A DNA stretch of 64,000 nt from NCBI GenBank assembly GCA_020343435.1, contig CP070794.1, forward strand, positions 126,413-190,412, written 5' to 3'. Below, in pieces: positions 17,141 through 64,000 of the stretch (positions are counted from its first letter, which is position 1; every line of letters begins with the position of its first letter). The translations under genes were made by a program, and so were the position numbers. Source of the DNA: an archaeon. GTDB lineage: Archaea; Nanobdellota; Nanobdellia; Pacearchaeales; UBA284. Below the pieces are notes generated by a model that saw only the letters and a list, made by a program, of their open reading frames with translations, did no database searches and was not told where the DNA came from.

Positions 17141-17141
17141 T

Positions 17142-17600: not shown

Positions 17601-17682
17601 AATTTCAAAGTAAGGTTTATAAAATACCTTTTCTTTTTAAACTGTGTAAAAAAAGAGGCTGTGATTTATAAATCTTACTAGA
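17601..17682. promoter_or_regulatory. Divergent promoter region between the pilin operon (-) and the pilus-assembly operon (+), with TATA-like boxes
   Basis: ggtttataaaa (about 17615-17626) and gatttataaatc (about 17655-17666), each about 25-30 bp from the respective start codon. These are AT-rich BRE/TATA-like elements. Confidence 0.35.
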
Positions 17683-21083: not shown

Positions 21084-21085
21084 AA

Positions 21086-21967: not shown

Positions 21968-21968
21968 A

Positions 21969-22934: not shown

Positions 22935-22973
22935 GACAGAAAAGAATTTAAATCTTAAAATAGAAAGAATAAC

Positions 22974-26606: not shown

Positions 26607-28082
26607 ATGGCTGAGGAGACTGAGAAAAAAGAAGTAAAAACTACTAAAAAAGTTAAGAGAAAGAGAATTAATTGGACAAAGTTAGGGATAGTTATTGTAA
26701 TTGTAGCTTTTATCTTAATATTCTTATGGCCAGGAGGAATTCTTTTATCTGAGCCAGGACAAGCTACAAGATATGTTAACACATCTTATGATGTTTTTGT
26801 TGGAGATCAAATAATAGATACAGGTTCTGGAAATATAAGAGAGGGGACATTATCTGGATCCATAGGATTTATTTCTGATAAATTAGATCAAGAAATAACA
26901 AATATGCAACCTGGTGAAGATAAGAATATTACCTTAACAGCAACAGAAGCTTTTGGAACTTGTGATTCCTCTAATAATTTTGAATATGATAGAAAACAAG
27001 AAATAGAAAGAGAGCAAGATATAAACAGAACAAGAAATGTAACATTAGCTATCTTTACACAAATGTTTGAAGAAGAACCAGAAGTTGGAGAAGTTTATGA
27101 AACTCCCTTAGCAGAATGGAAGTACAAGGTCTTAGAAATTTTTGATAATGAATTAACTCTAAGCATTGAAACTGAACTTGGAAAGGAGTTTCCAGCAGGT
27201 TATTATGGGGTCCTAAAAGTTAAAACAATAACTGATGATAAGATTACTCTAAGATTGGAAGGGGAAGATTCTATAGTTCCTAGTGAAGTAGGGAATATTG
27301 AAATTGAATTTAAAGAAGACGTTGTTGTTAGCACATTAACTCCAGAAATTGGAGCAGAAATTCAATTACCTAACTTACCTAAAGCAAGAGTAATAGAATT
27401 AACTGAAGACACTATAAAATTAACAACAAATCATCAGTACTGTGATCAGGAAGTTATAGTTTCAATTAAAGTTTTAGGAAGATCAACTCAGACCACCTCT
27501 ACAGGAGGACCCATACAACATATTGAAGGAGCTCCAACATTAGAATTCTATATCATGAGCTACTGTCCTTATGGATTACAAATGTTAAAGGGAGTGTTGC
27601 CAGTTTGGAAACAATTCCAAAGTCATGCAAATATAGAATTAAGATTTGTTAATTATATTTTACACGGTCAAGAAGAACAAGATGAAAATGCAAGAATGAC
27701 TTGTATAAGAGAAGAACAATCTGATAAATTAATAGATTACTTAACTTGTTTTGTTGAGAATGGAGATTATGAGAGATGCATGGTGCAAACAGGAGTTGAT
27801 TCAGCTGAAGTAGAATCTTGTATAGATGAAAGATATGATACTTACTTTGTAGAAGATAATGCTAGAAATGAACAATATGGAGTAAAGGGATCTCCAACAG
27901 TGGTATTAAATGGTGAAGTAATTGAATTATGGCCAAGAAGCCCATCAAATGTAGCTAAAGCAATATGTGATGCTTTTGATTCAAAACCAGATGTTTGTGA
28001 TTTAACATTTAGTGAAGAAAATCCAACAGCAGGGTTTGGGGGGAGTACTGGAGGATCTGGTGGTTCTGGTGGAAGCTGTTAA
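26607..28082 (+). CDS. Membrane-anchored extracytoplasmic thioredoxin-fold (DsbA-like) thiol:disulfide oxidoreductase with a Gly-rich C-terminal tail
   Basis: N-terminal TM anchor (WTKLGIVIVIVAFILIFLW). CxxC active site ..FYIMSYCPYGLQML.. followed by a DsbA-like helical insert (..LIDYLTCFVENGDYERC..). C-terminus GFGGSTGGSGGSGGSC. Confidence 0.55.
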   Translation: MAEETEKKEVKTTKKVKRKRINWTKLGIVIVIVAFILIFLWPGGILLSEPGQATRYVNTSYDVFVGDQIIDTGSGNIREGTLSGSIGFISDKLDQEITNMQPGEDKNITLTATEAFGTCDSSNNFEYDRKQEIEREQDINRTRNVTLAIFTQMFEEEPEVGEVYETPLAEWKYKVLEIFDNELTLSIETELGKEFPAGYYGVLKVKTITDDKITLRLEGEDSIVPSEVGNIEIEFKEDVVVSTLTPEIGAEIQLPNLPKARVIELTEDTIKLTTNHQYCDQEVIVSIKVLGRSTQTTSTGGPIQHIEGAPTLEFYIMSYCPYGLQMLKGVLPVWKQFQSHANIELRFVNYILHGQEEQDENARMTCIREEQSDKLIDYLTCFVENGDYERCMVQTGVDSAEVESCIDERYDTYFVEDNARNEQYGVKGSPTVVLNGEVIELWPRSPSNVAKAICDAFDSKPDVCDLTFSEENPTAGFGGSTGGSGGSGGSC

Positions 28083-31056: not shown

Positions 31057-33219
31057 ATGTCTAGAGAGGATCAAATAATAAAAGAGCGTTTAAGAAAAAT
31101 AGAAGAGTTAAGAAAACAAGGGATTAATCCTTATCCTTACAAATTTGATAAGAAAAACTACTGTGAAGAGCTACAAAAAAAGCACTCTAAACTAAAAAAA
31201 GAACAAGAAGCTAAAGGAACGGTAAAAATAGCTGGAAGAATCTTGGTTATAAGGAATATGGGAAAAATTTGTTTCGGTAAATTACAAGATAATACTGGAC
31301 AAATACAAGTTGTCTTACAAAATCAAAAAACTCCTGAAAAAGAAATTAAATTTTTCAAAAAATACATTGACTCTGGAGATATTTTAGGAGTAGAAGGTTC
31401 TATATTTAAGACAAAGAGAGGAGAATTATCTGTTTTAGCTAAAAAAATAACCCTCTTAACTAAATCTATAAAACCTTTACCTGAAAAATGGCATGGATTA
31501 CAAGATAAGGAAGAAAGATACAGAAAAAGGTATCTAGATTTAATTATGAATCCCAAAGTTAAGGAATTATTCTTAAATAGACAAAAGATTGTTAATGCTA
31601 TTAGAGAATTTATGGAGATTAAGGGATTTACAGAAGTAGAAACACCAATTTTACAATCAATTTATGGTGGGGCATCAGCAAATCCCTTTGAATCTAATCT
31701 AAATGCTTTAAATATGAAAGTCTACATGAGAATTTCTAATGAACTTTACTTGAAAAGATTAATAGTTGGCGGATTTGAAAAAATATTTGAATTTTCAAGA
31801 GACTTCAGAAACGAAGGTATTGATAGATTACATAATCCTGAATTCACACAAGTTGAAACCATGTGGGCTTATGCGGATTATGAAGATAACATGAAATTCT
31901 GTGAAGAAATGGTTAGTTTCATAACTAAAAAAATTCATGGAAAAACAAAGATAAAATTCCAAGATAAGGAAATTGATTTTAAAACACCATGGAAAAGAAT
32001 AAAATTCTTAGATGTTATTAAAAAACACACAAAAGCAGATTTCTCTAAAGTAAAAAAAGTAGATGAAGCTAAGAAGATAGCTAATAAATTAAACGTAGAC
32101 ATAACTAATTGTGAAAGTGTTGGTGAAATAATAATAAATGTTTTTGAAGAACTAGTGCAAGATAAAATAATACAACCAACAATTGTTTATGATTATCCTT
32201 ATGAAGCAGTAGGATTAGCAAAATCTGGAGAAAATAAGAAATTTGTAAAATCTTTTGAACCAATTGTCAATGGTTGGGAACTTGGATTATCTTACTGTGA
32301 ACAGAATGATCCTCAAGCATTAAAGGAATACTGGAAAGAGGCTGAAGAAAAATACAAAAGAGGAGATATCGAAGCACAACCAACAGATCCTGATTTCATC
32401 AATGCCTTAGAAATAGGAATGCCCCCAACATCTGGCATGGGAATGGGAATAGATAGATTAACTATGTTAATGACAGATCAAACTTCAATAAGAGATGTTT
32501 TATTTTTCCCATTTATGCGACCAGAAAAACCATTAAAAGTTCCTTCTCAAAAAGAAAAAAGAACAGATATGAAAAGAATAAAAGAAGTTTTTATTTCTCC
32601 TGAAGCTAGAAAAATTGGATTAAAAACAGGATATGCTATCATTTCTGGAGTTAAGATATATAAAAAAAATCCTGGACTTGAAAAATTAAAAAAATCATTA
32701 AAAGCTAAAAGAGATAAGAAAAAAATTGAATGCATGCAAAAAGCTTTCAGAGCTTTTGGAGTAGATCCTACTAAAAGAGCTCCAAGTGCAGAAGCTCTAA
32801 TCAAAAGAGTAGAATCTGGAAAAGACATCTATAACATCAATACGTTAGTTGATGCTTATAATTTATCTTCTGTAAAAGAAAATTTACCAATGGCAGCATA
32901 TGATTTAGAAAAAGTTGATTTCCCAATAACCTTAAAAGAAGCAAAAGGAGAGGAGATAACCTTCATTGGTGGAGAAAAAAAGAAAACTCAACCAGGAGAA
33001 ATAGTTTACGCAGATGAATTCGAAATATTATGTTTAGATTTTAATTATAGAGATTGTAATAAAACAAAGATAACTGAAAAAACAAAAGAAGTTATCATCT
33101 TTGTTGATGGTTGTGAAGGAATAAGCAATAAAGAAATTTTATCTGCATTGAATAATACTTGTGACTTAATAATCAAGTTCAATGGTGGAAAAGTTATGGA
33201 AAAAAAGGTTGTAGAATAA
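31057..33219 (+). CDS. lysS: Class II lysyl-tRNA synthetase fused to a C-terminal B3/B4 (PheT-like) tRNA-binding domain
   Basis: N-terminal OB-fold (..IAGRILVIRNMGKICFGKLQDNTGQIQVV..). Class II motifs (..FEFSRDFRNEG.., ..GMPPTSGMGMGIDRLTMLMTD..). Residues about 540-720 (..KAFRAFGVDPTKRAPSAEALIKRV..INTLVDAYNLSSVKENLPMAAYDLEKV..) resemble the B3/4 domain. Confidence 0.85.
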   Translation: MSREDQIIKERLRKIEELRKQGINPYPYKFDKKNYCEELQKKHSKLKKEQEAKGTVKIAGRILVIRNMGKICFGKLQDNTGQIQVVLQNQKTPEKEIKFFKKYIDSGDILGVEGSIFKTKRGELSVLAKKITLLTKSIKPLPEKWHGLQDKEERYRKRYLDLIMNPKVKELFLNRQKIVNAIREFMEIKGFTEVETPILQSIYGGASANPFESNLNALNMKVYMRISNELYLKRLIVGGFEKIFEFSRDFRNEGIDRLHNPEFTQVETMWAYADYEDNMKFCEEMVSFITKKIHGKTKIKFQDKEIDFKTPWKRIKFLDVIKKHTKADFSKVKKVDEAKKIANKLNVDITNCESVGEIIINVFEELVQDKIIQPTIVYDYPYEAVGLAKSGENKKFVKSFEPIVNGWELGLSYCEQNDPQALKEYWKEAEEKYKRGDIEAQPTDPDFINALEIGMPPTSGMGMGIDRLTMLMTDQTSIRDVLFFPFMRPEKPLKVPSQKEKRTDMKRIKEVFISPEARKIGLKTGYAIISGVKIYKKNPGLEKLKKSLKAKRDKKKIECMQKAFRAFGVDPTKRAPSAEALIKRVESGKDIYNINTLVDAYNLSSVKENLPMAAYDLEKVDFPITLKEAKGEEITFIGGEKKKTQPGEIVYADEFEILCLDFNYRDCNKTKITEKTKEVIIFVDGCEGISNKEILSALNNTCDLIIKFNGGKVMEKKVVE

Positions 33220-34627: not shown

Positions 34628-34698
34628 TGGGGACGGAGAGAATCGAACTCCCATCAGCCGGTCTGGAGCCGGCAGTTCTACCTTTGAACTACATCCCC
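34628..34698 (-). tRNA. tRNA-Trp (CCA)
   Basis: Reverse complement GGGGATGTAGTTCAAAGGTAGAACTGCCGGCTCCAGACCGGCTGATGGGAGTTCGATTCTCTCCGTCCCCA. Anticodon loop CTCCAGA; cloverleaf pairs throughout. Confidence 0.85.
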
Positions 34699-34733: not shown

Positions 34734-37514
34734 CTAAAGAATGAATTCTGGCACTTCATAAGGATAAACTATTATAGCACAAGTATCATTCCCATTATCC
34801 CATTTATCCTTACATTTAATATAATAAGGATCACTAATCTGCCATGGTGCTGAGTGTTTAAACTTATCTGCTGAGGACATTGGAGTCCCATCACTAAAAT
34901 TATATGCACAGGATCCCGATCTTAAACTGTAAACACAACTTGCTTCATCATCTGTTTCTATTACTAAACTATTTCCAAAAGCTCCAAATGCAGGATCATT
35001 CATATGATACATTCTAATAACTTCTGGAGGAGTAATATCTTTAACAATAGAGAAAGAAGTTGTAAAGTGATTAACTTCTAAATTACCAGCATCTCTACAT
35101 CTTACAAATAAATAATGTGGTTTTCCTTCATCGGGGGTTGCATTTAATTCTTCAGATACAATTCCAATATGTGTTTGTGTAAATACTTCATCTAAGAAAT
35201 TCATCTCATCCCATAAGATATTATTAACTGCTCCTTGAGTCCATTGCCTTGTATTAATCAAATACTTACAATAAGTATTGTGAGAAGTATTAACAACTAA
35301 CTCTGGTTGTCTTTCATAAGTTTCATAACTATCATTCCATGGAGGTTGAATAATCTCAATATCATAAGGTGGCATTGCAAGTAATGAATAAGGAACTGGA
35401 GGCATTTCATTATCTTCTTCATCTCTGCAAACAAACATTAATCTGTATAAACCAATGCTCTCATTTACATACTCAAACTGTTGCATTAGATCAAGTATGT
35501 GACTAATATCTTCTGAAGTTAGATTATTTCCATACTTTTCTCTTAAAGTTTCTTCATCCATACTTAAATCAATTTGTTCTCCACCATGTGTTAAATCAAG
35601 AGTTAAGTTAGCATGAGTACATTCTCCGCTAGTTACTAAACATCTTCCAGATTCATAAGGAGAAGGATTTGCTTTAACAAATTCAAATTCTTGTCCAAAA
35701 CTTGTCATATTATCCCAATCTACTGATAAAGGAACTGTATGTAATGGAGTACTATACCTGCACCTAACTTCATCTTCATCAAACCATAATTCAATTTCTT
35801 TTTCAGGAAGATTTGCTGGAATAAAACTCTGCCAAGGATCTATATAACATCTTCCAGCATCATGAGCTGTGATTAGATCGGGATAACAAGGATATCTCCA
35901 ATCTGGTTCATCTTCTAATTCAAACTTAACTTGATAAGGATTATCTTCTGGTTGATGAACTGCACCACAAACATCTTGACATTTTATAAAGATAGTATAA
36001 CTTTCTCCAGGGACCAAACCATCTGTAGGAGCATAGACATAATGTTCTGATGAGAATAAATCAGGATCAAATGTAGACATGTTTTCAAATGCTTGGTCTT
36101 TCTTAAAGCTCCATCTACATTTTGTAAACTCTGAATAAGGATTTGCTTCAGCAGAAGTATCTACATATAGTTCTATATATGCTGTATCCCAAGCAATTTT
36201 TCCTAGATCAACTCCCCCACTACTTCCTCCAGTCCAATCTTTATCTCTAACAACAGTTCCATTAATATCATATGCTATTGCATTTAGATAGATTATCTTT
36301 GGACTTCCTCTTTCAGGACAATCTCCAGAGATACATATAACTCTTCCAGGATCCTCTGTTTCAGCAGTAATACAATTAGGTCCTAAAATTGCGCATCTTT
36401 CTTCTGTACAAAAGAATCCTTCTTCATTACAAGATTCACATTGGCTTTCTGTTAAAGGTTGTTCAGGTGCGCAAGTTCCAACATGTGAAGCTAGTCTTAT
36501 TGAAGTTGCTATTCCATAAGTTAATGAAAAGATATCTACAACATACTCCCAAGCGCACCATCCATATCCAATATGTTCTCTATCACTACAATTGATTATT
36601 CTTTCCCAGAAAGATTTCTTTTCTTTTTTTCCTTCTTCAATCTCTTTTTGGATGTTATCTTTAATTTCATTGGCATTTTTATCATAATCGGTCCATGCTT
36701 CCCAAAACTCATTTATTTCTTCTTCTGTGAGTTCAACAGGTTTGCCTGCTACTTTTCTTTTAAGTCTTTCTCTTGTGCTTGTTGAAAGGCCAAGTTTATC
36801 TAAAAGAGCATTCTCTCCTCCTTCTTTTTCTGTTCCAAGTTTAAAAGCCTCTTCAATTTGTCCACTGATTTTATCAAAAACTCCCTCTTTTAATTGTGTT
36901 TCAAATGGGGATAAAATAGAATCTATTAACATTGAGACTAAAGGATTTCTAACAACATTTCCAGCACTACCAACTCCTGTTGCTGCTGGATTTGGATTTA
37001 ATGCTGAACCTTGATTATTGGTGGTTCCAGTAACAGTAAAATCTATCCTTTCTGGAACTGCTGTAGCATAAGAAACTTCATGTATCGGTAAGGTACCATG
37101 CATCTTATCTTTGTATACTTTAAGATTTTTTAATTCTACATAAAAAGTATCACCAACAGATTGACTTGCTTTTATCTTAAAACTAAAAGAATATTCTCTC
37201 CCCTCTCCTTTTTGTAATCTTATTACCTGGGGAGTTTTGGCTCCATTATGAACAATTAATTCTCCTCCTTCTAGACCATCATAATCTCCAGGAACTGTCA
37301 AAGAAATGATAATAGCATTATCTTGGCCCCTTTGGATTGTTTGTGGGGAAGCAGTAAAACTAACTTCTACATCTTCAGCAAATGAAAATGGTGGGATAAC
37401 CAGAGTTATTAAAAAAACTATCATAGCTAATGCTATTATTTTTTCAGCTGTTTTTTTATTTTTTAATTTCATGTTATGCATTCTCCCCACATTGTGTTTG
37501 GAGGGTGTACGCAT
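34734..37514 (-). CDS. Large secreted protein (926 aa) with N-terminal signal/TM anchor and many Cys; unknown function
   Basis: MKLKNKKTAEKIIALAMIVFLITLVIPPFSFA signal-like N-terminus. Numerous Cys pairs (..CSDREHIGYGWCAWEY.., ..CESCNEEGFFCTEERCAILGPNC..). It overlaps the upstream Cys-rich gene (37469). Confidence 0.5.
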   Translation of the reverse strand: MRTPSKHNVGRMHNMKLKNKKTAEKIIALAMIVFLITLVIPPFSFAEDVEVSFTASPQTIQRGQDNAIIISLTVPGDYDGLEGGELIVHNGAKTPQVIRLQKGEGREYSFSFKIKASQSVGDTFYVELKNLKVYKDKMHGTLPIHEVSYATAVPERIDFTVTGTTNNQGSALNPNPAATGVGSAGNVVRNPLVSMLIDSILSPFETQLKEGVFDKISGQIEEAFKLGTEKEGGENALLDKLGLSTSTRERLKRKVAGKPVELTEEEINEFWEAWTDYDKNANEIKDNIQKEIEEGKKEKKSFWERIINCSDREHIGYGWCAWEYVVDIFSLTYGIATSIRLASHVGTCAPEQPLTESQCESCNEEGFFCTEERCAILGPNCITAETEDPGRVICISGDCPERGSPKIIYLNAIAYDINGTVVRDKDWTGGSSGGVDLGKIAWDTAYIELYVDTSAEANPYSEFTKCRWSFKKDQAFENMSTFDPDLFSSEHYVYAPTDGLVPGESYTIFIKCQDVCGAVHQPEDNPYQVKFELEDEPDWRYPCYPDLITAHDAGRCYIDPWQSFIPANLPEKEIELWFDEDEVRCRYSTPLHTVPLSVDWDNMTSFGQEFEFVKANPSPYESGRCLVTSGECTHANLTLDLTHGGEQIDLSMDEETLREKYGNNLTSEDISHILDLMQQFEYVNESIGLYRLMFVCRDEEDNEMPPVPYSLLAMPPYDIEIIQPPWNDSYETYERQPELVVNTSHNTYCKYLINTRQWTQGAVNNILWDEMNFLDEVFTQTHIGIVSEELNATPDEGKPHYLFVRCRDAGNLEVNHFTTSFSIVKDITPPEVIRMYHMNDPAFGAFGNSLVIETDDEASCVYSLRSGSCAYNFSDGTPMSSADKFKHSAPWQISDPYYIKCKDKWDNGNDTCAIIVYPYEVPEFIL

Positions 37515-39607
37515 CTTAATCCTTCACGGCATTCTGAATCAGCAGGGCCCTTTATAGATATACAAGAATCTCCTCTTGATACAGAATTAAGTTCTACACA
37601 AACATCTTGATCAACTCTATTGACTACTGTAGTTCTACACTGGCCAGATTTACAATCACCATCACTAGAGCAAGGATCTGATCGCTCTTTCTTCTCTTCG
37701 GTTTGTTCCTCTTCTTTTTGTCTATTTCCATATCGTGGATTTTTTGAATAAAAAGGATTGTCAATATATCCAATTAAATCTACTAAAGCTAATGGGCTTG
37801 CTTTCCACATAAATTCTAAAGTTAATGGACCATACTTACTATATTTCTTGGTGAAACATCTTCCGTATTCTGCTAAGTATCCTCCAGGAATAGCAGTGGA
37901 ATGTAATGCTTGGACAGCACATTCTACTGGGATTAAGTTTAATCTCTCGAGTACTGTTGTTGGATAAAATGTTAAAACCCCTGTTCCAGCACTTAGCCAG
38001 AAGTTTTTCTGGAATTGATAATTTCCAAGACTATAACACTCTCCAGCATCACAAACATTCCATAGATCATCTCCTCCTTCTCCACATTTTCCTGCCTCCC
38101 AATTGGTGACTCCAGGAGGATAAACAGGAACACAGTTTCCATATTCTGTTCCAGGGAATACTCCATGCCAATCAACAACATACATACAATCTCCTGCTTC
38201 CATACATGTATCTCTATTACATCTATCAGAGATCAAAGAACCTAAACTTATGCTTAATAGATAACCTGTTGGCCAAAATGGTCTAAACACATCTCCTATC
38301 CACTCAATAACTAAAGAATTTTGTCTCCCACACGAAGTACAATTTTGCCAAACATTAGCTTTTTCCTTAGCATAACCATATCCACTCTCACTAACAGCAG
38401 GTTGGCATAATGTGTTTCTATCTAAACCCATTCCAAAAACTTTTAATTCCCCCTCTTCACATTCTAGATATTGATTTTGCAATCCTGTACTTCTATCACC
38501 CATCCTTGCAATATCTTCTTTTCCTTCTCCTCTCTCAAAAGAACCATAATAATTATAACACTTTTGTTCTCCATGCCTTAAACTAAAAGGTTCATCATTT
38601 ACTTTGGTGACAATTCTTTTATTGGTTTCAAATCCCCAGAATTTTGCATCAATAACTTCAATTTCTTGACTACCTTCTAAATCTATATTATTACAAGAAA
38701 CTTGTTTACAATAAGGATAAGTTTTTGCTACTTCATCTGAAGTATCATCATCTGAAAGAAGATTGCAACTTTCTTCTTTACAAATTTTACAAATATATCC
38801 TTCAGCAAAATTACAACTATTATAATTTATTTCATCTCCCAAACCATTTGTAAAATTTATTCCCAACCCAGATTCAGGAGCACATCTTTCTTGTTGCCCT
38901 CTATTATCATATAAACATATTTTATTTTCATCTCCTAATTCATATTGACCACAAGAAATTCTTTGTTCACCAACATTATCACAACCAACAACTTCTGAAC
39001 ATTGTACTCCTTTAAAGAAATCTTCTACAGTTCCCCCCATATCTGCACATTGTTCAAAATTAACATAATAACATCCATCTGAAACTTTACAACATCCTTT
39101 TGATTTGCTTCTACAGTTAGCATATGTCTCTGTTTGACATCTAGCTCTACAAGAAGTATAACTTTCTCCTTCTTTGCATTCACATTCTGTAAATTCAAAT
39201 TCATTTCCTGCTGCTAACTCTTCACAAATTTTATATTGTTCAGCTTGACAATTAACACTACATCCTCCTAACTTACATGCTGGAACCTCTTGTAAATCTG
39301 TTACTCTAGCAACATGTCTACCATAAACCTCACATTCTGCTTTATATTTTCCTAATTCACACTGTCCTTCTCTTGGAACACAAGCACCAAGTTGACAAAA
39401 ACTAACTTTAGAACAATCTGTCTCTAAAAAACTTGGAAAACTTTGTTTTCTTGCTCCAGGAGCACACAAATCATCTGTTGTTTCAACACAATATCTCCCA
39501 GCATTGTCTTTTTCACAACAAACAGGTGCAGGAACAGAACTAACATTAACTGTAAGTATGATTACAAATATAATACCTATCAATAAAAAAATTCCTGCTT
39601 TTTTCAT
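37469..39607 (-). CDS. Giant cysteine-rich secreted protein (712 aa; about 9-10% Cys by eye)
   Basis: Signal peptide MKKAGIFLLIGIIFVIILTVNVSS, then a dense Cys pattern throughout (..PVCCEKDNAGRYCVETTDDLCAPG.., ..CKICKEESCNLL..). Confidence 0.5.
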   Translation of the reverse strand: MKKAGIFLLIGIIFVIILTVNVSSVPAPVCCEKDNAGRYCVETTDDLCAPGARKQSFPSFLETDCSKVSFCQLGACVPREGQCELGKYKAECEVYGRHVARVTDLQEVPACKLGGCSVNCQAEQYKICEELAAGNEFEFTECECKEGESYTSCRARCQTETYANCRSKSKGCCKVSDGCYYVNFEQCADMGGTVEDFFKGVQCSEVVGCDNVGEQRISCGQYELGDENKICLYDNRGQQERCAPESGLGINFTNGLGDEINYNSCNFAEGYICKICKEESCNLLSDDDTSDEVAKTYPYCKQVSCNNIDLEGSQEIEVIDAKFWGFETNKRIVTKVNDEPFSLRHGEQKCYNYYGSFERGEGKEDIARMGDRSTGLQNQYLECEEGELKVFGMGLDRNTLCQPAVSESGYGYAKEKANVWQNCTSCGRQNSLVIEWIGDVFRPFWPTGYLLSISLGSLISDRCNRDTCMEAGDCMYVVDWHGVFPGTEYGNCVPVYPPGVTNWEAGKCGEGGDDLWNVCDAGECYSLGNYQFQKNFWLSAGTGVLTFYPTTVLERLNLIPVECAVQALHSTAIPGGYLAEYGRCFTKKYSKYGPLTLEFMWKASPLALVDLIGYIDNPFYSKNPRYGNRQKEEEQTEEKKERSDPCSSDGDCKSGQCRTTVVNRVDQDVCVELNSVSRGDSCISIKGPADSECREGLRCVHPPNTMWGECIT

Positions 39608-40431
39608 TCTCTACTTATAGCAAACTGAAATTTAAATGGGTTTTCTCCATCTCTTGTTGGTTCTGATTCTAATATAACAACTCCAACATTAAATGAACTT
39701 GGGTGATGTATTCCATTAATCTTGATATTTCTATGTTGTTCATATAAAGCAGTTTGGTAATGTTGCTTTACTAATCCTTCAAATTTCTCTCCTGCAATTT
39801 CTGAATTAACAATATCTTGAGCAACTTCTAAAAGATCCTTGAATGGAATGGATAATATAACATCTTTTTGATTAATTTTTTGAGTTGTAGTTCCAGTAGC
39901 ATATTTTTTTGAAACAGTTATTGGCCAATCAACACTTATAACAATTTTATCATTAGTAATCTCTGCTTCAAAATCTTTTTCTTCAGGTTCTACTCCAATT
40001 TGTCTTTTAAAAGAAGAGAAATCGTTTAAACAACTCTCAATTTCTTCGTATCCTTCTTCTTCTAAGGCTAACTGGAATTCTTGTTCTATCATCTCCAAAG
40101 AAGGTAATCTATTAACTAATTTATTTCCACCAAATTTATCCATTACAACAACATATTGGTCTTCCCCCCACAAAAACGCATAAACATGGCTCCATCTGTA
40201 ATAACCAGCTTGTTTTCCTAATGTAATAAAAATATTTTCACTAGTTTCAGAAACACAATCATAAATAGCATCTCTTAATGGTTCAATTTGGCTTGCCAAA
40301 AGTTCTCCTGCTTTTTCTTCACTTGTAAATCTGTCTCTAATAGAAGGCCATAAGAATATAGCAATTAATGCCACAGCAACAATGATCACTGCGATGATTA
40401 TGAATAAAGTAGTTTGTCCTCTTTTATACAT
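39604..40431 (-). CDS. Pilin-like protein with class III signal peptide (KRG|QTTLFIIIAVIIVAVALIAIF), 275 aa
   Basis: Canonical basic residue, G, then Q+1 and a hydrophobic helix. First gene of the operon with the two Cys-rich secreted proteins. Confidence 0.5.
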   Translation of the reverse strand: MYKRGQTTLFIIIAVIIVAVALIAIFLWPSIRDRFTSEEKAGELLASQIEPLRDAIYDCVSETSENIFITLGKQAGYYRWSHVYAFLWGEDQYVVVMDKFGGNKLVNRLPSLEMIEQEFQLALEEEGYEEIESCLNDFSSFKRQIGVEPEEKDFEAEITNDKIVISVDWPITVSKKYATGTTTQKINQKDVILSIPFKDLLEVAQDIVNSEIAGEKFEGLVKQHYQTALYEQHRNIKINGIHHPSSFNVGVVILESEPTRDGENPFKFQFAISRE

Positions 40432-41312: not shown

Positions 41313-42653
41313 ATGGAAGTTGAGAAGATAAAACGAATTGCAAGAAAGTATTATTCAAGGAAAGATATCCAAAAAGTACTGTTTGAACAAGCTAAGAATA
41401 GAGAAATAATCCCAAGATATGTTAAAAGAGATGAAAAAATGGTGACTAAAGACACAATTCTTATGGGAAAAAGACCAGATACATTAGAATATCTTGGGGA
41501 TTTGATAGGATATGTGGAAAGAGGAGCTACAAGTTTTCATGTTTCTGAAGAATTTTGGCAAGACCCTCTACAATTAAAAACAGCATTAACACAACAGGCA
41601 CTTAACAAATTAAGACTAGGTTGGGATTTGATACTAGATATAGACTGTCCCTATTTAGAATATAGTAAGATAGCAGCTTTTCTGTTGATAGAAGCTTTAT
41701 ATTTCCATGGGATTAAAAAAGTGGGATTAAAATTCTCTGGAAAAAAAGGGTGGCATATTGGAGTTCCCTTTGAAGCATTTCCTAAGAGAGTCCAAAACAT
41801 AGATGTTAAAGGATTCTTTCCAGAAGGACCAAGGATTATAGCAGCTTATTTGAAAGATATGATAAAAAAAGGTCTTGCTGAAAGAATGTTGGAGATGTCT
41901 AGTCTAAAAGAGATATCAAGATCAATGGGAAAACCAGAGAAAGATCTTTTGGATGATAAAAATCAGTTTAATCCTTATTCTGTTTTAGAAGTAGATACTG
42001 TTTTGATCTCCTCAAGACATCTTTATAGGATGGCTTATTCATTACATGAAGTTTCAGGATTATCTAGTATAGTTATTAGACCAGAGCAATTAAGATCCTT
42101 CCATATTGGGTGGGCAAAACCTGAAAGAGTTTTACCAAAGCCATTTTTACCTGTTCCAGAAAAAGAAGAAGCAAAAGAATTATTAATCCAGGCTTTAGAT
42201 TGGGTAGCTAGACAAGAACAAAGAAAAACTTTTGTTAAAAAAGAAAAATTTTCTCCAGTAAAAACTATTAAAATAAAAGAACTTAAACCAGAACTTTATC
42301 CTCCTTGTATTCAAAATATTTTACCAGGAATAAAAAAAGATGGTAGAAAAAGAGCATTATTTGTTTTAATAAATTATTTCCGTTCATTAGGAATGGAATT
42401 CAATGATATAGAAAAAATATTAACAGACTGGAATAAGAAAAATTATAATCCATTAAGAGGGGGATATGTGAAAACTCAATTAAACTGGTTCAAGAGACAA
42501 TCTGTAAAATTACCTCCAAACTGTAAAAATTATTATCAAGACTTAGGAATTTGTTTTCCAGATAGTTTATGTAACAAAATAAAAAATCCTGTAACTTATG
42601 TTGTAAGAAAAGCTAGATTTTCTAAAGTGAGAGGAAAAAAGGCTAAAAAATGA
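41313..42653 (+). CDS. Single-chain DNA primase: PriS catalytic core fused to a PriL-type Cys-rich (Fe-S) C-terminal domain
   Basis: PriS motifs ..WDLILDIDCPY.. (DxD) and ..FSGKKGWHIGVPF.. (SGxRGxH). C-terminal 4 Cys (..PPCIQN..PPNCKNYYQDLGICFPDSLC..) and a ..RKRALFVLINYFRSLG.. helix resembling the PriL-CTD. Confidence 0.65.
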   Translation: MEVEKIKRIARKYYSRKDIQKVLFEQAKNREIIPRYVKRDEKMVTKDTILMGKRPDTLEYLGDLIGYVERGATSFHVSEEFWQDPLQLKTALTQQALNKLRLGWDLILDIDCPYLEYSKIAAFLLIEALYFHGIKKVGLKFSGKKGWHIGVPFEAFPKRVQNIDVKGFFPEGPRIIAAYLKDMIKKGLAERMLEMSSLKEISRSMGKPEKDLLDDKNQFNPYSVLEVDTVLISSRHLYRMAYSLHEVSGLSSIVIRPEQLRSFHIGWAKPERVLPKPFLPVPEKEEAKELLIQALDWVARQEQRKTFVKKEKFSPVKTIKIKELKPELYPPCIQNILPGIKKDGRKRALFVLINYFRSLGMEFNDIEKILTDWNKKNYNPLRGGYVKTQLNWFKRQSVKLPPNCKNYYQDLGICFPDSLCNKIKNPVTYVVRKARFSKVRGKKAKK

Positions 42654-42707: not shown

Positions 42708-45053
42708 ATGAAAAAAGAGTTGATAGTATGTATATTAGTTGTATTATTACTTTTATCACCAGTCCTTATTCATGCTGAAACAGAACAAGAACAAGTTGAT
42801 AAAGCATATTCTTGGTTAGTTAACAACACTGTTAATAAATGGGATGGATTAAACACAAGACAAAATGCCTTTTCTTTGTTGGCTTTAGGATGTAACACAA
42901 CATATAAAATTCAAGGCAATGATTCTTTATGGGAAAGAAGTTATAGTTCTGGAGGAAGAATATGTTGGGCAGAGAATACAAGTTCTCCAAACTGTGAGTT
43001 GGTTGAAACTTCTTTGGCTATCATGGCTTTAGATGAGATTGATGAGAATTACACAGATGCAAAGAATTGGCTTGTAGAAAGAAATAAAACACAAACTGAT
43101 CTTTATTGGTATTTACAATTAGATGTTGAAAGAGATTACAATGCAACATGTGAAGTTTATTATTTGGGAAGAAATGACTCTGTACAAATTAACGAAGATA
43201 AAACTGTTGCTTTGATCAGTGGTTCTGAATGCTTAAATGTTTATCAGCCAAATCAAGATTATTATTTTGAGTTTACAAGAAATGAAAGATGCCTTGGTGC
43301 AACTTATGAAATAAAATGTTTTAGTAGTTCTCCTTACTTTACTGCAACCATGCTTTACAAAAACACATCTGCTGGAAGACAATGGTATGTTTCTTCAGAA
43401 ACTGGTGTAGGAATCCCTGGAACAAGAGGAGAAAGAGGAGAAGAATCTGATGTTATTGAATTACAAGTTCCAAGTTATTGTCTAACTGAATTAGGGAGTA
43501 ACTCATGTAGTTATGAAGGAACTGCTTGGGGAGCTTATGTTCTTTCAAGAATAGGAGATACAGATTCAGCAAACATGTTCATACCTTATCTTGTGATTAA
43601 TGCTGAAAGAAATCCAGAATTATTCCCTTCAGCATTTTTAGCAGCATTGATTGATGGAAGGTTTACAGATGAAGCAGCAAATTTACAAAGAAATGATGGA
43701 TTCTGGATTATACAAAATGCTGGAGGTGGGGTTTTATATGGAAGATTATATACCACAGCTCTAGCAAAATTAATGTTAGGTTCTTCAGCTGATTTTACAA
43801 AAGCTAAAGAATGGGTATTAAGTAAACAAAAAGATCCAGGTTATTTTTCAGATGCTGATGTTGTTGGAGGAGAAGATAGACTTAGAGATAATGCTTTTGT
43901 GTTGTGGACATTCTGGCCAGATCAATGCCCAGGATATGGTGGGGGTATAGGAAACGAATCTCAATGCGAAAGAAGAGGTGGAATCTGTAGGCTTTCTTGT
44001 GATTCAAGAGATGAAGAAAGAACATGGGATTGTGATTCAGGATTAACATGTTGTGTTCCACCAGGAGGAGGATTAGAAAATTGTACAATGGCTGGAGGAG
44101 CATGTAGGATAGATGAATGTGAATCTGGAGAATTTTTCTGGGAAACTGGTTTCTGTGTAGAGGAAGACAGAATTTGTTGTAGAGATTATTTTGATTTCAG
44201 ATGTGAACAGCTTGAAGGGGAATTCTGTAATTCAACTCAAACATGTAGTGGAGAGAGAGTAGAAACTGTTGATTCATATGTTGGTGGTTCTGGATTATGT
44301 TGTTTGGGAGATTGTTTGGGAGATGATCCTAGCAACAAATACTGTTATGAAATTGGAGAAGAATGTGATCCTGGTGAGACCTGTATTAATGATGCAAGAA
44401 TAGAAATAGGATTTACACAAACCCTGGATGGAGATTGTTGTACTGGAAAATGTGTAAAAGATGATTATTGTAGTAGTATTGGAGAAGAATGTTCTTCTGG
44501 AGAGTGTAGGGGAAGTATTATCAAAACAATAGATACTGATGAGTGTTGTGATGGATCTTGTTTACAAACTTGTGATGACCTTGGAGGAGAACTCTGTTTA
44601 ACTGGCCAAGGATGTACTGGAAGATTTAGAACTGCTTCAAATGGGAGATGTTGTATTGATGGAACATGCACAACAAGTCCAGGAGAAGAAGGAGGATTCT
44701 CATTAATATGGATAATAATCATAATAATAATTGTAATTGTAGCATTATATTTCTTTGTTTTCAAAAAGAAACCAACTAAAAAAGAAGAAGGAGAAGATCT
44801 GTTTTCATTTACTAAACCAAAAAGACCACCAACACAACCACCAGCATTAAAACTACCACAACAAAGACCATTCCCCCAAACAAGACCACTACCAAGAATG
44901 CCAATGATGCCAAGACCAACTTTAAAACCAGCAACATTACCTAAACCAAAAACAACTACAACTAGAAAAACAACAACAAGGAGAAAAAGAACAACAAGTA
45001 AAACAGATCTTGAAAAGACATTAGCAAAGTTAAAGAAATTAACAAAAAAGTAA
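42708..45053 (+). CDS. Secreted, C-terminally membrane-anchored surface protein: prenyltransferase/squalene-cyclase-like alpha/alpha-toroid repeats + Cys-rich CC-G-C repeats + TM + basic Pro/Thr-rich tail
   Basis: Signal peptide; ..LQRNDGFWIIQNAGGG.. (QxxDGxW repeat motif); repeated ..GLCCLGDCLGDD.., ..GDCCTGKCVKDD.., ..DECCDGSCLQTC.., ..GRCCIDGTCTTS..; TM IWIIIIIIIVIVALYFFVF; tail PKRPPTQPPALKLPQQRP..TTTTRKTTTRRKR. Confidence 0.55.
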   Translation: MKKELIVCILVVLLLLSPVLIHAETEQEQVDKAYSWLVNNTVNKWDGLNTRQNAFSLLALGCNTTYKIQGNDSLWERSYSSGGRICWAENTSSPNCELVETSLAIMALDEIDENYTDAKNWLVERNKTQTDLYWYLQLDVERDYNATCEVYYLGRNDSVQINEDKTVALISGSECLNVYQPNQDYYFEFTRNERCLGATYEIKCFSSSPYFTATMLYKNTSAGRQWYVSSETGVGIPGTRGERGEESDVIELQVPSYCLTELGSNSCSYEGTAWGAYVLSRIGDTDSANMFIPYLVINAERNPELFPSAFLAALIDGRFTDEAANLQRNDGFWIIQNAGGGVLYGRLYTTALAKLMLGSSADFTKAKEWVLSKQKDPGYFSDADVVGGEDRLRDNAFVLWTFWPDQCPGYGGGIGNESQCERRGGICRLSCDSRDEERTWDCDSGLTCCVPPGGGLENCTMAGGACRIDECESGEFFWETGFCVEEDRICCRDYFDFRCEQLEGEFCNSTQTCSGERVETVDSYVGGSGLCCLGDCLGDDPSNKYCYEIGEECDPGETCINDARIEIGFTQTLDGDCCTGKCVKDDYCSSIGEECSSGECRGSIIKTIDTDECCDGSCLQTCDDLGGELCLTGQGCTGRFRTASNGRCCIDGTCTTSPGEEGGFSLIWIIIIIIIVIVALYFFVFKKKPTKKEEGEDLFSFTKPKRPPTQPPALKLPQQRPFPQTRPLPRMPMMPRPTLKPATLPKPKTTTTRKTTTRRKRTTSKTDLEKTLAKLKKLTKK

Positions 45054-45105: not shown

Positions 45106-47454
45106 ATGGGAAAAAGAGTTAATTCAAAAATATTAATATTTGTTTTTGCAATAATCTTTACGATAGCAATCACAAGTTTTGTTTCTGCAAGCTGTATAGA
45201 TATGAAATTAGCAAGAGAATCTTATTTGCCCCAAGAAACACTCCAGTTAGAGATAGATGCTGAATTAACAAGAGATTTAACAACAAATGATTTATTTTTG
45301 TATAGGGGTTCTTCTTTATTACCAAATGTTTTTTTTATGACTAAACTAACAGAAACAAAATATTTTGTATGGACAGATTTACCAGGCACAGAAGGAGATT
45401 ATAAGTTAATGGTAAGAGGAGTTTGTGAGGGAGGTTTATCTTTTGCTGAAAAAGAGTTTCCAGTAGTTAAACCAATATCAACTCTTTATGAGTCTCTTCC
45501 TACAGAAAACTTCAACACACTAACATTAAATGAACATATAATTACTGCAGCAGCTCTTTCATTTAGGCCAGAAGCAATAAGCAATGCACAGAATGATTTT
45601 CTTGTTAGGGGAAATTCTTGTTTTAACCAGGAATGCACAACAAAACAATATGCTTTATCTGCACTTGCTTTCCCAACCATAAGAAATGATATGTTGGATA
45701 GATTAACTGCAGCACAAAATTCAAGATTAGGAAATTGGTCTTTAGTTGTAAATTCAGGATCAGATCAACAATGTGATCTGACAATAGGAGAACAAACAGA
45801 GCAAGTTGATATTAATACTGGAGAACAAACACTTGATCTTGATTTAAATTCAACATCAGAACAAATAAATGTTATTCTTAATTGTTCTAGTAGTACAATA
45901 ACTTCATTAAACTACCAATATAAAGAAACAGAAAAAGAGATTGGAATAGAAAATGGAGAATTAGTATCTTTTACAATTAATAATCAAAAATGTTGGGGGT
46001 CTGGGATAAAAACAACCTGTGATGAAGAATCCACAACTTTTGCAATAGTAGCTTTGAAGTATCTTGGAAAGACTCTTGAAAATGGAACTTCAGTATGGCT
46101 TAGCAATAATAATGATTTGATTATGGCAAAAGCCGCTCATTACTTATTAACTAAAAACAATGAAACAGCAACTGTTCTTTTAACAAGTCAGATGTTTAGT
46201 GGGGGATGGCCAAATCAATTAGGAAGTTATGTTACAGATATGATTACAACAAGCATAGTCTACTTCTCATTACAACAAGATTATCCAGAAGAACTAGAGA
46301 AAACAGAAGATAGATTAAAATCATTGTTCCCTTCCTCAAACCTGGAAGAAAAAGCTTATACTTTATTTTTTGTTTTCCCTTCAAACAAAATAGAACCAAT
46401 TAGCAGAGTTTGGCCAGGAATGGTGAAAACAGAGAGTAGGGGCAGTTTTTATCTTATCTTAGAAAATAAAGGAACAGAGAATATAACTGTTAATGGTTAT
46501 TTCATGAATTCTACAATTGAGATAAATCTTCCAATAAACTCTCTTAAAAGTTTAACCATATCCATCCCAAGAGTTGCAACCCCTGATGAAAGAGCTGTGA
46601 ATTATGATCTTGATCTGATCCAAAGAACGGAGTTTGGAGGAAGGAGAGACTACAAAATTCCGGTAGTTATTTTTACAGAACTTGGAGATGGGATTTCTGG
46701 ACAAACAAACACAAGTGAACAAGAGATAAATGAAACTCAACAACAAAATATAATTAATCAAACACAGAATGGTAGTTTAAATAATCAAACAACCAATATA
46801 ACTGAACCACTTTTACAAGATAAGTTTAGTTTTGTTGAAGAAGAAATAGAAGAAAATATTTCTGAGAGAACTAATTTCACAATAACTTTACACCTAGCTA
46901 ACCTATATAATGAAGCTGTAGAAGATATAAGAATAATTTCAAGTATAGGTTTGTTGGGAATTCTTAATATAAATCCTTCTTCATTAGAAAGAATGGAACC
47001 TAAAACAAGAGAAGAGATTAATCTATCAATAACCCCTCAATTTGGAGGAAGTTATATTGGAACAATAACTGCTGAAGGAAAATTGAATAATCAAAGAATT
47101 TTATCAAATATTTCTGTTTCTTTAATAGTAAACCTTGAAGGTAATGTAACTTGTGCTGAAATGAATGGTACAGATTGTAGTGAAGAGGGGTTTACATGTA
47201 AGGGGGATAGAGAAGTAATGGCTTCTGATACCTTTCATTGTTGTTTGGGCAAATGTGAAAAGGAGGGAGGATCTAACACATTAGCTATAATTATCATCAT
47301 AATAGTTATAATTATCTTATTACTAGTTGTGTTTGTTCTAAAAAAGAAACCTAAAAAAGATATGGGCGATGTTTTGGATGAAGTACAAAACAAATATCAA
47401 AGAAGATTTAAACCATCTCCAGAAATAGGTCCAAGAGGCACTGGAAGACTCTAG
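45106..47454 (+). CDS. Paralog of the preceding surface protein (alpha/alpha-toroid repeat ..QMFSGGWPNQLGSY.., C-terminal Cys cluster, TM anchor, basic tail)
   Basis: Same architecture and similar length (782 vs 781 aa); ..CAEMNGTDCSEEGFTCKGD..FHCCLGKCEKEGG.. then AIIIIIIVIIILLLVVFVLKKKPKK. Confidence 0.55.
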   Translation: MGKRVNSKILIFVFAIIFTIAITSFVSASCIDMKLARESYLPQETLQLEIDAELTRDLTTNDLFLYRGSSLLPNVFFMTKLTETKYFVWTDLPGTEGDYKLMVRGVCEGGLSFAEKEFPVVKPISTLYESLPTENFNTLTLNEHIITAAALSFRPEAISNAQNDFLVRGNSCFNQECTTKQYALSALAFPTIRNDMLDRLTAAQNSRLGNWSLVVNSGSDQQCDLTIGEQTEQVDINTGEQTLDLDLNSTSEQINVILNCSSSTITSLNYQYKETEKEIGIENGELVSFTINNQKCWGSGIKTTCDEESTTFAIVALKYLGKTLENGTSVWLSNNNDLIMAKAAHYLLTKNNETATVLLTSQMFSGGWPNQLGSYVTDMITTSIVYFSLQQDYPEELEKTEDRLKSLFPSSNLEEKAYTLFFVFPSNKIEPISRVWPGMVKTESRGSFYLILENKGTENITVNGYFMNSTIEINLPINSLKSLTISIPRVATPDERAVNYDLDLIQRTEFGGRRDYKIPVVIFTELGDGISGQTNTSEQEINETQQQNIINQTQNGSLNNQTTNITEPLLQDKFSFVEEEIEENISERTNFTITLHLANLYNEAVEDIRIISSIGLLGILNINPSSLERMEPKTREEINLSITPQFGGSYIGTITAEGKLNNQRILSNISVSLIVNLEGNVTCAEMNGTDCSEEGFTCKGDREVMASDTFHCCLGKCEKEGGSNTLAIIIIIIVIIILLLVVFVLKKKPKKDMGDVLDEVQNKYQRRFKPSPEIGPRGTGRL

Positions 47455-54247: not shown

Positions 54248-55114
54248 ATGTTAGATATTTTAACAGCAGATATTATTCTTACAGTAATAGCAATAGTCTG
54301 GTTAATAGCTGCATCAGTAACAGATATTAAAAAAAGAGAGGTAGCAGATTGGATAAGTTACAGTTTAATTGCTATTGCATTGGCAACTAAAATTATGGTT
54401 TCTGTATTATCTTCAGATTTTTCATATCTATATTATAGTTTGATTGGTTTGGGGATATTTTTTGGATTAGCAATGGCGCTTTACTACTCAAGAATTTTTG
54501 GAGGAGGAGATGCTAAATTATTGATGGCATTGGGTGCTTGCTTTGCTGTAAAACCAGTTTTTGCAAAAGTGATGAGTTTTGGTTTTATTTATAATGAACC
54601 ATTCTTACTAACTTTAATAATTAATATGTTATTTATTGGGGCAATTTATGGAATAGTGTTCTCAATTATTAACGGATTAAGAAACAAAAAAGGTTTCTCA
54701 AGAACTTATAAAGAAAATTCAAAGAAGAATTATAAAATATTTTATTTTGCTTTAGCAATAATTTTGTTTGTATTTGCTTTGATAACAAAGACTTATAACT
54801 TGATTATTTTGGCAGTAATATTTGCAGTTCTTCCTTATATTTTCACAGCAGTAAAATCTTCTGAACAATTAATGATCAAATTAAAATCTGGAAAAGATCT
54901 GAGTGAAGGAGATTGGTTGGCTAAACCCATTAAAATAAAAAATAAAAATCTTAAAATAACTGCTGATGGTTTAAGTAAGGAAGATATAAAACTAATAACA
55001 AAATCAAAAAAGAAAGTTTATATCAAAGATGGGATTCCTTTTGTTCCAGCGATATTAGTAGCATTAATAATTAGTTTATTTGTAGGAAATATTTTACTGT
55101 TACTCATAGCTTAA
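54248..55114 (+). CDS. Type IV prepilin / preflagellin peptidase (A24 family; PibD/FlaK/EppA-like)
   Basis: Catalytic Asp motifs ..SVTDIKKREVADWIS.. and ..IFGGGDAKLLMALG.. (the GGGD motif) in a polytopic membrane protein. Confidence 0.75.
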   Translation: MLDILTADIILTVIAIVWLIAASVTDIKKREVADWISYSLIAIALATKIMVSVLSSDFSYLYYSLIGLGIFFGLAMALYYSRIFGGGDAKLLMALGACFAVKPVFAKVMSFGFIYNEPFLLTLIINMLFIGAIYGIVFSIINGLRNKKGFSRTYKENSKKNYKIFYFALAIILFVFALITKTYNLIILAVIFAVLPYIFTAVKSSEQLMIKLKSGKDLSEGDWLAKPIKIKNKNLKITADGLSKEDIKLITKSKKKVYIKDGIPFVPAILVALIISLFVGNILLLLIA

Positions 55115-63870: not shown

Positions 63871-64000
63871 ATGCTTAGTACCAACTCTAAAAAAGCACAG
63901 ATGACACTTTTTATAATAATAGCTATAATAATTGTTGCTGTTGTTTTACTAGTTTTTGTTGTAGGAAAGGTTTCTTTTACACAAGTTCAAGAAGCAAGTG
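63871..64000 (+). CDS. Pilin-like protein, N-terminal fragment (class III signal peptide KKA|QMTLFIIIAIIIVAVVLLVFVV); continues beyond the window
   Basis: MLSTNSKKAQMTLFIIIAIIIVAVVLLVFVVGKVSFTQVQEAS. It is near-identical in layout to the 39604..40431 N-terminus (KRGQTTLFIIIAVIIVAVAL). Confidence 0.4.
   Translation, partial: MLSTNSKKAQMTLFIIIAIIIVAVVLLVFVVGKVSFTQVQEAS

Follow-up and report, generated by a model that had tools for sequence, protein, structure and literature searches.

A clade-wide operon couples a pilin-like gene to a large exported, cysteine-rich partner in Woese-, Pace- and Nanoarchaeota-type archaea

What does a pilin-like protein do with two very large, cysteine-rich exported partners in a small archaeal genome? 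An operon that raises this question occupies positions 34,734 to 40,431 of the window, by which we mean the whole 64,000-nt stretch analysed here (contig CP070794.1, 647,887 bp, of assembly GCA_020343435.1, positions 126,413 to 190,412; a metagenome-assembled archaeon of the Pacearchaeales, UBA284). A first-pass annotation, made from the letters alone, had read it as a pilin-like gene followed by two overlapping secreted giants that might form an array of small disulfide-knot modules. We call the three genes A, B and C (Table 1). Our best explanation, to which we assign a probability of about one half, is that B and C together make a disulfide-stapled adhesin with exchangeable heads, anchored by a pilin or displayed on a pilus.

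A, B and C form one translationally coupled operon on the minus strand. The A/B junction is a 4-nt ATGA overlap that places the start of B on the stop of A, and the B/C junction has the same form when C begins at the ATG at 37472. This is where the 912-residue NCBI product begins, and homologues have their start at the corresponding MK(x)KNK. The longest open reading frames (ORFs), all on the minus strand, run from 40431 to 39604 (275 aa), 39607 to 37469 (712 aa) and 37514 to 34734 (926 aa). Taking the last of these at face value, from its start at 37514, had produced a 926-residue protein and an apparent 46-nt overlap of the giants (37469-37514), an artefact that disappears with the correct start. 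PCNA lies 50 nt upstream of A on the same strand, and a TATA-like element, TTTATAAA, ends 21 nt before the A start codon. This element is a putative promoter of the operon, and its distance would fit a leaderless transcript. At the other end, a tRNA-Trp gene and a T-run 3' of C on the same strand mark where the operon stops. A chromosomal origin fits the ordinary GC content (29-36% throughout the window, with no distinct composition in the operon) and the lack of viral family or viral fold matches. We considered and rejected a viral or mobile origin of the cassette, having found no PHROG matches and no BFVD matches for the model of B, the only one searched in BFVD.

Gene A encodes a protein that is pilin-like at its N-terminus. 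The sequence MYKRGQTTLFIIIAVIIVAVALIAIFLW places Lys/Arg at -2, Gly at -1 and Gln at +1, followed by about 22 hydrophobic residues. Written as MYKRG/QTTLFIIIAVIIVAVALIAIFLW, with a slash at the predicted cleavage site, it follows the class III rule of a short basic leader, K/R at -2, G/A/S at -1 and about 20 hydrophobic residues, so the class III signal first ascribed to this gene holds. A prepilin peptidase would be expected to cut A after Gly5. Beyond the helix lies an alpha/beta domain of about 240 residues with two invariant cysteines, C59 and C134. Homologues in Pace- and Woesearchaeota are 42-51% identical. The motif [KR][GAS] before a hydrophobic stretch recurs in 100 of 103 distinct A-family ORFs, with Gln at +1 in 96, a count that is partly circular because the same motif seeded the locus search. 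Gln at +1 is also found in the window's own pilins (16706-17600). An AlphaFold2 model of A (pLDDT 78, pTM 0.74) has a helix from residue 4 to 73, kinked at 36-37, and then beta-strands and further helices.

B and C are exported, and B is exceptionally rich in cysteine. Both proteins begin, as had been proposed, with Sec-type signal peptides that comprise a basic n-region, a hydrophobic core (KD19 2.6-2.8) and a c-region of small residues. B uses Sec rather than Tat export because its MKKAG start lacks a twin arginine. On exact counting, 55 of its 712 residues are cysteines (7.7%, against 1.63% over all window ORFs of at least 150 aa; binomial P = 8e-21), which is far from ordinary. The density described at first sight, about one cysteine per 10 residues along the whole protein, was right in lying far above background and wrong in detail. 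The real value is one per 12.9, unevenly spread as 1/8.4 over residues 30-305, 1/24 over 306-645 and 1/8.4 over 646-712. The "many" CxxC, CC and CxC spacings come down to two CxxC, two CC and one CxC.

Covariation among relatives indicates that the cysteines of B form disulfide bonds. Thirty cysteine columns of the B family are conserved at 90% or more and 38 at 70% or more. Across 48 near-complete B sequences, six variable pairs appear and disappear together (phi 0.91-1.0), each pair with its own phyletic pattern and with low cross-pair correlations. Cysteines 30-65 and 172-203 are each both present in 38 sequences and both absent in 10, with none holding only one. The pairs 276-281 (both in 25, neither in 23) and 505-530 (both in 42, neither in 6) likewise never occur singly. 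A single sequence carries only one member of pair 120-165 (both in 20, neither in 27), and two carry only one of pair 231-242 (both in 15, neither in 31). Such paired gain and loss points to disulfide partners.

The cassette is conserved throughout a clade. Searched exhaustively with HMMER, a set of 1.84 billion representatives yielded 71 B relatives (42 at E<=1e-10), most of them 600-650 aa long with 6.4-8.6% Cys. A word-index search had matched only B itself; HMMER and the syntenic loci exposed this apparent orphan status as a sensitivity artefact, and we discarded it. By BLASTP, B is 29% identical to its homologue in locus L004 (E=4e-54), and residues 303-912 of C are 33% identical to the syntenic C of L005 (E=3e-87). 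Relatives keep the order PCNA, A, a protein of about 600 aa with about 7% Cys, a protein of about 1000 aa and, further on, Hjc and lysyl-tRNA synthetase. The position between PCNA and Hjc/lysyl-tRNA synthetase is retained in L001-L012. We used the A alignment to scan GTDB species genomes, which revealed at least 248 loci; 80 of these were retrieved and annotated with hidden Markov models. All 80 come from metagenome-assembled genomes of Woese-, Pace- or Nanoarchaeota, except a few labelled Methanosarcinales. A complete 710-kb Pacearchaeota genome is among the retrieved A-family loci, and the closest relatives of the operon proteins carry the label Pacearchaeota or Woesearchaeota. Of 52 B genes, 46 have A immediately upstream and three more sit at contig edges; locus L087, fetched through B, is also ordered A-B-C.

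Eight of the A-family loci (L038, L041, L045, L049, L051, L062, L073 and L079) are titled 'uncultured Methanosarcinales archaeon', one of them a 774-kb 'chromosome' (OZ246410.1). Their gene content looks DPANN-like, so these taxonomic labels may be wrong.

The three families appear to resemble nothing characterised and to be linked 'dark' families of Woese-, Pace- and Nanoarchaeota-type DPANN. B has no match in Pfam (E<=0.1), NCBIfam, PHROG or PDB profiles, nor by Foldseek in PDB or BFVD (E<0.01). Neither A nor C has a Pfam, NCBIfam or PHROG match, and PDB sequence-profile searches gave nothing significant. Our literature search found nothing on the A, B or C families.

B and C are two halves of one protein, because fused relatives align first to B and then to C. 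Among the annotated loci, 19 ORFs unite B with the last 600 aa of C, 18 cases keep the two apart, 13 are undecidable and two B genes have no C. In 13 B relatives of 1,137-1,381 aa, the first 550-600 residues or so correspond to B and the last 600 or so to C residues from about 300 to 912. Fused proteins measure about 1,100-1,450 aa, with one outlier of 1,876 aa. Their order is colinear with the split genes: B core, helices, a linker with an Ig-like domain, neck and repeats. What had been taken for two independent giants is thus a single protein, still in one piece in roughly half of its relatives. An apparent A-B fusion was set aside as evidence. A single 821-aa ORF in L013 (3950-6415) joins the two, with A truncated at its C-terminus and a remnant of the B signal peptide kept where they meet; a genuine fusion, a pseudogene and a misassembly are all conceivable.

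The two halves have distinct anatomies. The B core carries invariant non-cysteine motifs, CYNFY (350-354), RSTGLQN (372-378) and PPG..C..CGGGGD.WN.C...E.YSLGNC.F (497-532). The helical region that follows is moderately hydrophobic in relatives and internal in B-C fusions (24 unfused and 13 fused proteins surveyed). The 8-cysteine tail is confined to the closest relatives; no more than 20% of the family have its cysteine columns. C has 25 cysteines (2.7%, P about 0.01), ten in a 91-residue neck and the others scattered through four repeat domains. The long cysteine-paired stretches claimed for it survive as this neck and as cysteine pairs in the repeats, in a protein with just 25 cysteines altogether. 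Six neck cysteines are invariant (C345, C348, C355, C360, C367 and C380). Each repeat has a conserved cysteine pair and the motif C-[RK]-[YW] ... M..F ... Y-[IV]-[KR]-C-x-D, and the invariant pairs are C452/C498, C571/C682, C735/C792 and C846/C887. Comparing the C-family profile with itself by hhalign related the repeats to one another with 80-96% probability (E 2e-9 to 1e-5), and two C-family members show weak Ig-like matches (Big_13, Y_Y_Y).

The head of C is the part that changes. Among orthologues the alignment has no conservation before column ~860, and other modules stand there instead. In the L005 orthologue (L005/L007 3830-6775) the head contains PG_binding_1 (E=5e-13), a hint that bacterial cell walls are the target in that organism. 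The head of C itself matches CBM_4_9 weakly, under the cut-off. Cassettes also multiply and diverge. At least 14 loci hold tandem cassettes, with two or three divergent copies per locus, and identity among relatives is 27-33% for B and C against 46-49% for A, so B and C diverge faster. Tandem multi-copy cassettes and faster B/C divergence fit surface recognition proteins.

Coupling a pilin-like gene to a large exported partner is a general design of the clade, and the cysteine-rich B-C protein is one class of partner for A-family genes. The idea of a repeated pilin-plus-cargo cassette is borne out by A preceding B, by the tandem loci and by other A paralogues with large Sec-signal partners. 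In relatives, the gene after another short A paralogue encodes a Sec-signal protein of 480-960 aa that is not cysteine-rich, usually with an overlap of -4 or -8 nt; large Sec-signal proteins lie directly 3' of other A paralogues at L057 2786-4606, L022 5018-7138 and L009 17105-18955. One such partner has an SLT lytic transglycosylase domain just above the Pfam cut-off (21.7 bits vs 21.3), and two contain HExxH-like strings (HEMAH, HEGGH) spotted by eye only. Some A-family members reach 620-740 aa through a long extension C-terminal to the A domain. We tried reading these as fusions of A to low-cysteine cargo and rejected the idea, as BLASTP gave matches in 0 of 28.

A second A-family gene begins at the window edge. 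The KKA/QMTLFIIIAIIIVAVVL start at 63871 resembles the N-terminus of A, confirming the paralogue noticed there. The order tRNA-Thr, 127-aa gene, tRNA-Val, A-domain gene is common to the window edge, L026 and L048, where the A-domain proteins have 620-622 aa. In L026 (9995-19548 of the complete genome CP061211.1), the 622-aa A-domain protein overlaps by 4 nt a 2562-aa Sec-signal protein with 2.4% Cys. By this synteny, the gene at 63871 probably encodes an A-domain protein of 620 aa, and the gene after it a giant that is not cysteine-rich, contrary to the expectation that cysteine-rich cargo would recur there.

How might A, B and C work together? The gene structure, the export signals, the conservation, the clade-wide linkage, the split and fused forms of B-C and the disulfide signature are firmly established; cleavage of A, contact among the three proteins, display on a pilus and an adhesive function are what we infer. 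The A24 prepilin peptidase encoded in the window, presumably acting in trans, would cut A after Gly5. The mature A helix would then join a type IV filament assembled by the products of the pilus genes at 19-23 kb, or remain embedded in the membrane and serve as a stalk. B and C would leave through Sec and fold outside the cell, the B scaffold held by at least 15 disulfides and C by its 10-cysteine neck and the paired cysteines of four beta-sandwich repeats. The B-C complex could dock on A and serve in adhesion or in contact with a host. The conserved B core and the C repeats would form a rigid shaft, and the non-conserved N-terminal head of C would set binding specificity. Copy-number variation, the faster divergence of B and C and head swapping are all in line with an adhesin, as is the symbiotic lifestyle attributed to Woese-, Pace- and Nanoarchaeota-type archaea.

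Several observations weigh against such a pilus-linked adhesin. The model of A found no pilin in PDB by Foldseek, and nothing at all at E<0.01. A has no match at E<=0.1 to the Pfam Class_IIIsignal family (PF04021) or to NCBIfam class III models; two pilins of the window's own type IV pilus locus match PF04021, weakly. The operon lies 15 kb from that locus, and no ATPase or platform gene adjoins it in any locus examined. Peptidase, ATPase and platform genes are all encoded in the window, none of them next to the operon. Neither B712 nor C912 itself shows a detectable adhesin domain. The AlphaFold2 model of B, built on an alignment of library representatives, is of moderate confidence (pLDDT 68, pTM 0.48). 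The invariant motifs RSTGLQN, CYNFY and GGGD.WN may belong to a catalytic or ligand-binding site instead of a shaft.

B-C could alternatively be a structural part of the envelope, an S-layer-like or spike wall protein, with A as a mere membrane anchor that has no part in adhesion or in a pilus. We regard this as possible, though on balance unlikely. B and C are large, exported and disulfide-stabilised, and the cassette has a fixed chromosomal position beside housekeeping genes and adjoins two conserved surface proteins with C-terminal transmembrane anchors, D781 and E782. Cysteine-rich S-layer-like proteins do occur in archaeal type IV pilus loci (Makarova et al. 2016, PMC4858521). Yet neither B712 nor C912 has a hydrophobic segment of KD19>=1.6 beyond its signal peptide, hence no C-terminal transmembrane anchor of its own, and D781 and E782 are the better match for the C-terminally anchored S-layer pattern. 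Two or three tandem divergent copies per locus and a C head swapped among orthologues would also be uncommon features in a wall protein that forms a lattice.

A secreted effector or enzyme, such as a hydrolase, a toxin or a ligand-processing protein, whose release A aids as a pseudopilin, much as in type II secretion, strikes us as improbable. The invariant non-cysteine motifs of B could form an active site, other A paralogues precede Sec-signal proteins, one with an SLT domain at the Pfam cut-off, and HExxH-like strings occur by eye in some of the other partners. Against these stand the failure of B and C to match any enzyme family in Pfam, NCBIfam or PDB, and an architecture of four Ig-like repeats and a variable head that resembles a shaft and tip. 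Archaea, moreover, lack the outer membrane that a type II secretion system crosses.

An array of known EGF-, knottin- or TNFR-like modules, the fold family initially proposed for B, is very unlikely. Cysteine density is high, and the N-terminal 190 residues do look like three small related modules; the family consensus and the AlphaFold2 model resolve residues 29-220 into beta-beta-alpha-beta units starting GCCxKTxxGxYC, ECxxGCC and GCCVxxxGxC. The 67-residue tail also gives matches below gathering scores to Toxin_29 (16.9 bits vs 25), EGF_Teneurin (13.1 vs 24.3) and Dickkopf_N. No EGF, TNFR, furin-like or knottin model reaches threshold, however, for whole B or its segments, and the isolated N-terminal 197 aa have no Pfam match even at E<=5. 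The core (230-535) is a large beta plus alpha/beta domain, not a set of repeats, and Foldseek found no such disulfide-knot fold. With nothing significant in Pfam, NCBIfam, PDB or Foldseek, membership of B in these families is unsupported. The rigid surface array and the lipid-monolayer membrane imagined at first sight are conjecture, and nothing in the window bears out the second. That the cysteines bind Fe-S clusters, haem or other metals in an extracellular redox or electron-transfer protein is barely credible, since its sole support is cysteine richness and a probably anoxic lifestyle, while B has no CxxCH and no ferredoxin-type or Fe-S spacing, its two CxxC (CKICK and CTSCG) do not precede His, it is exported by Sec without a twin arginine, and its cysteines are gained and lost in twos.

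The pilin-linked adhesin that we favour recalls known systems and matches none. As in PilY1/PilC tip complexes, a pilin-like protein is coupled genetically to a large Sec-exported non-pilin thought to be adhesive, and the window also encodes an assembly ATPase, platform proteins and a prepilin peptidase. Unlike PilY1 and PilC, B and C share no sequence or fold similarity with these proteins; Pfam, NCBIfam, PDB fold and sequence-profile searches found no beta-propeller or vWA domain in either, and the window's VWA protein is another gene (1239 aa, 12419-16138). The A-B-C operon also stands apart from the pilus locus, and its cargo occurs as split or fused halves and is far more disulfide-rich. 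In the Sulfolobus bindosome, class III signals direct surface-displayed functional proteins, which bind substrates, rather than classical filament subunits. A likewise bears a class III signal; the solute-binding subunits of the bindosome, in contrast, have a dedicated ATPase/platform operon, and A has no solute-binding fold or match. Modular type IV pilins such as PilB of Streptococcus sanguinis (PMC8179133) combine a pilin module with an extra adhesive module, as the 620-740-aa A-family members with their extension may recall, whereas the functional module in the window lies in separate genes with their own Sec signals.

Comparable too are the large cysteine-rich and S-layer-like or adhesin-like accessory proteins of archaeal type IV pilus loci (Makarova et al. 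2016, PMC4858521; 10.64898/2026.04.22.720090). These bring together class III signal proteins and large signal-peptide proteins with conserved, presumably disulfide-forming cysteines, and include adhesin-like proteins rich in Ig folds. They differ in belonging to arCOGs of Thermoproteales, Euryarchaeota and similar groups and in lying inside the pilus loci. Neither PMC4858521 nor 10.64898/2026.04.22.720090 describes the A, B and C families, the B-C split and fusion or the DPANN-wide cassette.

Table 1. Features of the operon, the pilus machinery and the window edge (positions in the window)
Feature	Position	Strand	Description	Basis
Gene A	39604..40431	-	275-aa type IV pilin-like protein, NCBI JSW08_00930	ORF, homologues
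Class III signal of A	40431-40417	-	MYKRG/Q	sequence
Hydrophobic helix of A	about 40416-40348	-		sequence
Gene B	37469..39607	-	712-aa Sec-exported, disulfide-rich protein (predicted), JSW08_00925	ORF, NCBI, family search
B residues 29-220	38948..39523	-	N-terminal cysteine-dense region, 1 Cys per ~8 residues	family consensus, AlphaFold2, Cys positions
B residues 230-535	38003..38920	-	conserved core: beta-rich, then alpha/beta domain	alignments, AlphaFold2
B residues 536-615	37763..38002	-	amphipathic helical C-terminal region	AlphaFold2 helices, hydropathy survey
B residues 646-712	37472..37672	-	lineage-specific 8-Cys tail after charged linker	Cys columns, pLDDT <50
Gene C	34734..37472	-	912-aa Sec-exported protein, JSW08_00920	NCBI product, junction, homologue N-termini
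C residues 33-295	36588..37376	-	variable head: Ig/CARDB-like beta domain and charged, probably coiled stretch	
C residues 295-385	36318..36590	-	10-Cys neck, consensus C..EQPL....C..CN....CTEERC.ILG..C	alignment, Cys positions
C residues 386-912	34737..36317	-	four tandem repeats of ~110-180 aa, probably beta-sandwich	profile self-comparison
tRNA-Trp(CCA)	34628..34698	-	36 nt downstream of C, then T-run	ARAGORN
Class III-like ORFs	11365-12444 and 16125-16718		filament locus	
VWA-domain protein	12419-16138		1239 aa, class III-type; filament locus	
Two small pilins	16706-17600	-	KKG/QVTIEF and KRG/QVSVEF; filament locus	
T2SSE	19290-21083		FlaI/PilB-like ATPase; filament locus	
Two TadC-like platform genes	21086-22934		T2SSF; filament locus	
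KaiC/FlaH-like ATPase	22974-23732		filament locus	
A24 prepilin/preflagellin peptidase	54248..55114	+	Peptidase_A24 E=4e-15; FlaK_Arch E=4.5e-15, below equivalog cut-off	Pfam, NCBIfam
A-family paralogue, N-terminus	63871..64000	+	MLSTNSKKA/QMTLFIIIAIIIVAVVL..., cut by window edge	motif scan

The window contains further genes of interest for filaments and the cell surface. Its type IV filament locus spans 11365-23732, and the two platform genes match 'system 1/4A' of the 2026 preprint on type IV filaments (10.64898/2026.04.22.720090). Directly upstream of the pilus ATPase, a 536-aa ORF (17683-19293, +) combines a cyclophilin-type peptidyl-prolyl isomerase (E=8e-12) with a weak C-terminal match to ISXO2-like DDE transposases. 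ORFs at 24139-25190 (-) and 3766-4353 (-) have class III-like N-termini (MVNKKG/WLLVIE, MMKNKKG/VHHVEY and KKA/AFEMSVSTMVIIVIAVV), and those starting MVNKKG/WLLVIE and MMKNKKG/VHHVEY adjoin a HerA/FtsK-like ATPase (25187-26515). The surface proteins D781 (42708-45053, +) and E782 (45106-47454, +) are 45-50% identical in relatives, in the same synteny, and each has a signal peptide, a C-terminal transmembrane anchor and a basic tail. D781 contains 6% Cys in six repeats of about 35-45 aa, C..G..C...C.....CC...C; a module shared between B and D781 was considered and rejected (hhalign probability 1.7%). A 491-aa protein (26607-28082, +) has an N-terminal transmembrane anchor and a C-terminal thioredoxin-like domain (Thioredoxin_4 E=5e-4, just below the cut-off) with a single-cysteine CPYG motif, not CxxC; it might assist the cysteine-rich proteins as a thiol-disulfide or folding factor outside the cytoplasm. 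A 446-aa protein (41313-42653, +) weakly matches the domains of the two DNA primase subunits, small and large, and may be a fused PriS-PriL primase; its counterparts beside PCNA in relatives have 437-450 aa and no Pfam match on record. The 720-aa product of 31057-33219 (+) has as its syntenic L001 counterpart a 488-aa class II tRNA synthetase (tRNA-synt_2), which implies a C-terminal extension of about 230 aa.

A bolder proposal goes beyond adhesion. The A-B-C cassette might supply the apparatus, long sought, by which Woese- and Pacearchaeota-type DPANN make contact with their hosts. Exchangeable heads on a pilin-mounted, disulfide-stapled giant, such as the peptidoglycan-binding domain of one orthologue, would set the host that is recognised, the B core with its RSTGLQN, CYNFY and GGGD motifs and amphipathic helices would act on the host envelope after docking, and tandem divergent cassettes would form a repertoire of host specificities. 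We offer this speculatively and would not bet on it.

On current understanding, DPANN archaea mostly live attached to other cells; for the very abundant Woese- and Pacearchaeota, we know of no cultivated model and no attachment machinery. A genome of less than 1 Mb that spends about 5.7 kb on a protein with what would be dozens of extracellular disulfides raises the question of how such cells oxidise cysteines outside. Three linked families are found clade-wide, exported and often multiplied, and their architecture is suggestive of a rigid shaft that ends in a variable tip. A, B and C thus provide concrete targets for work on attachment in Woese- and Pacearchaeota.

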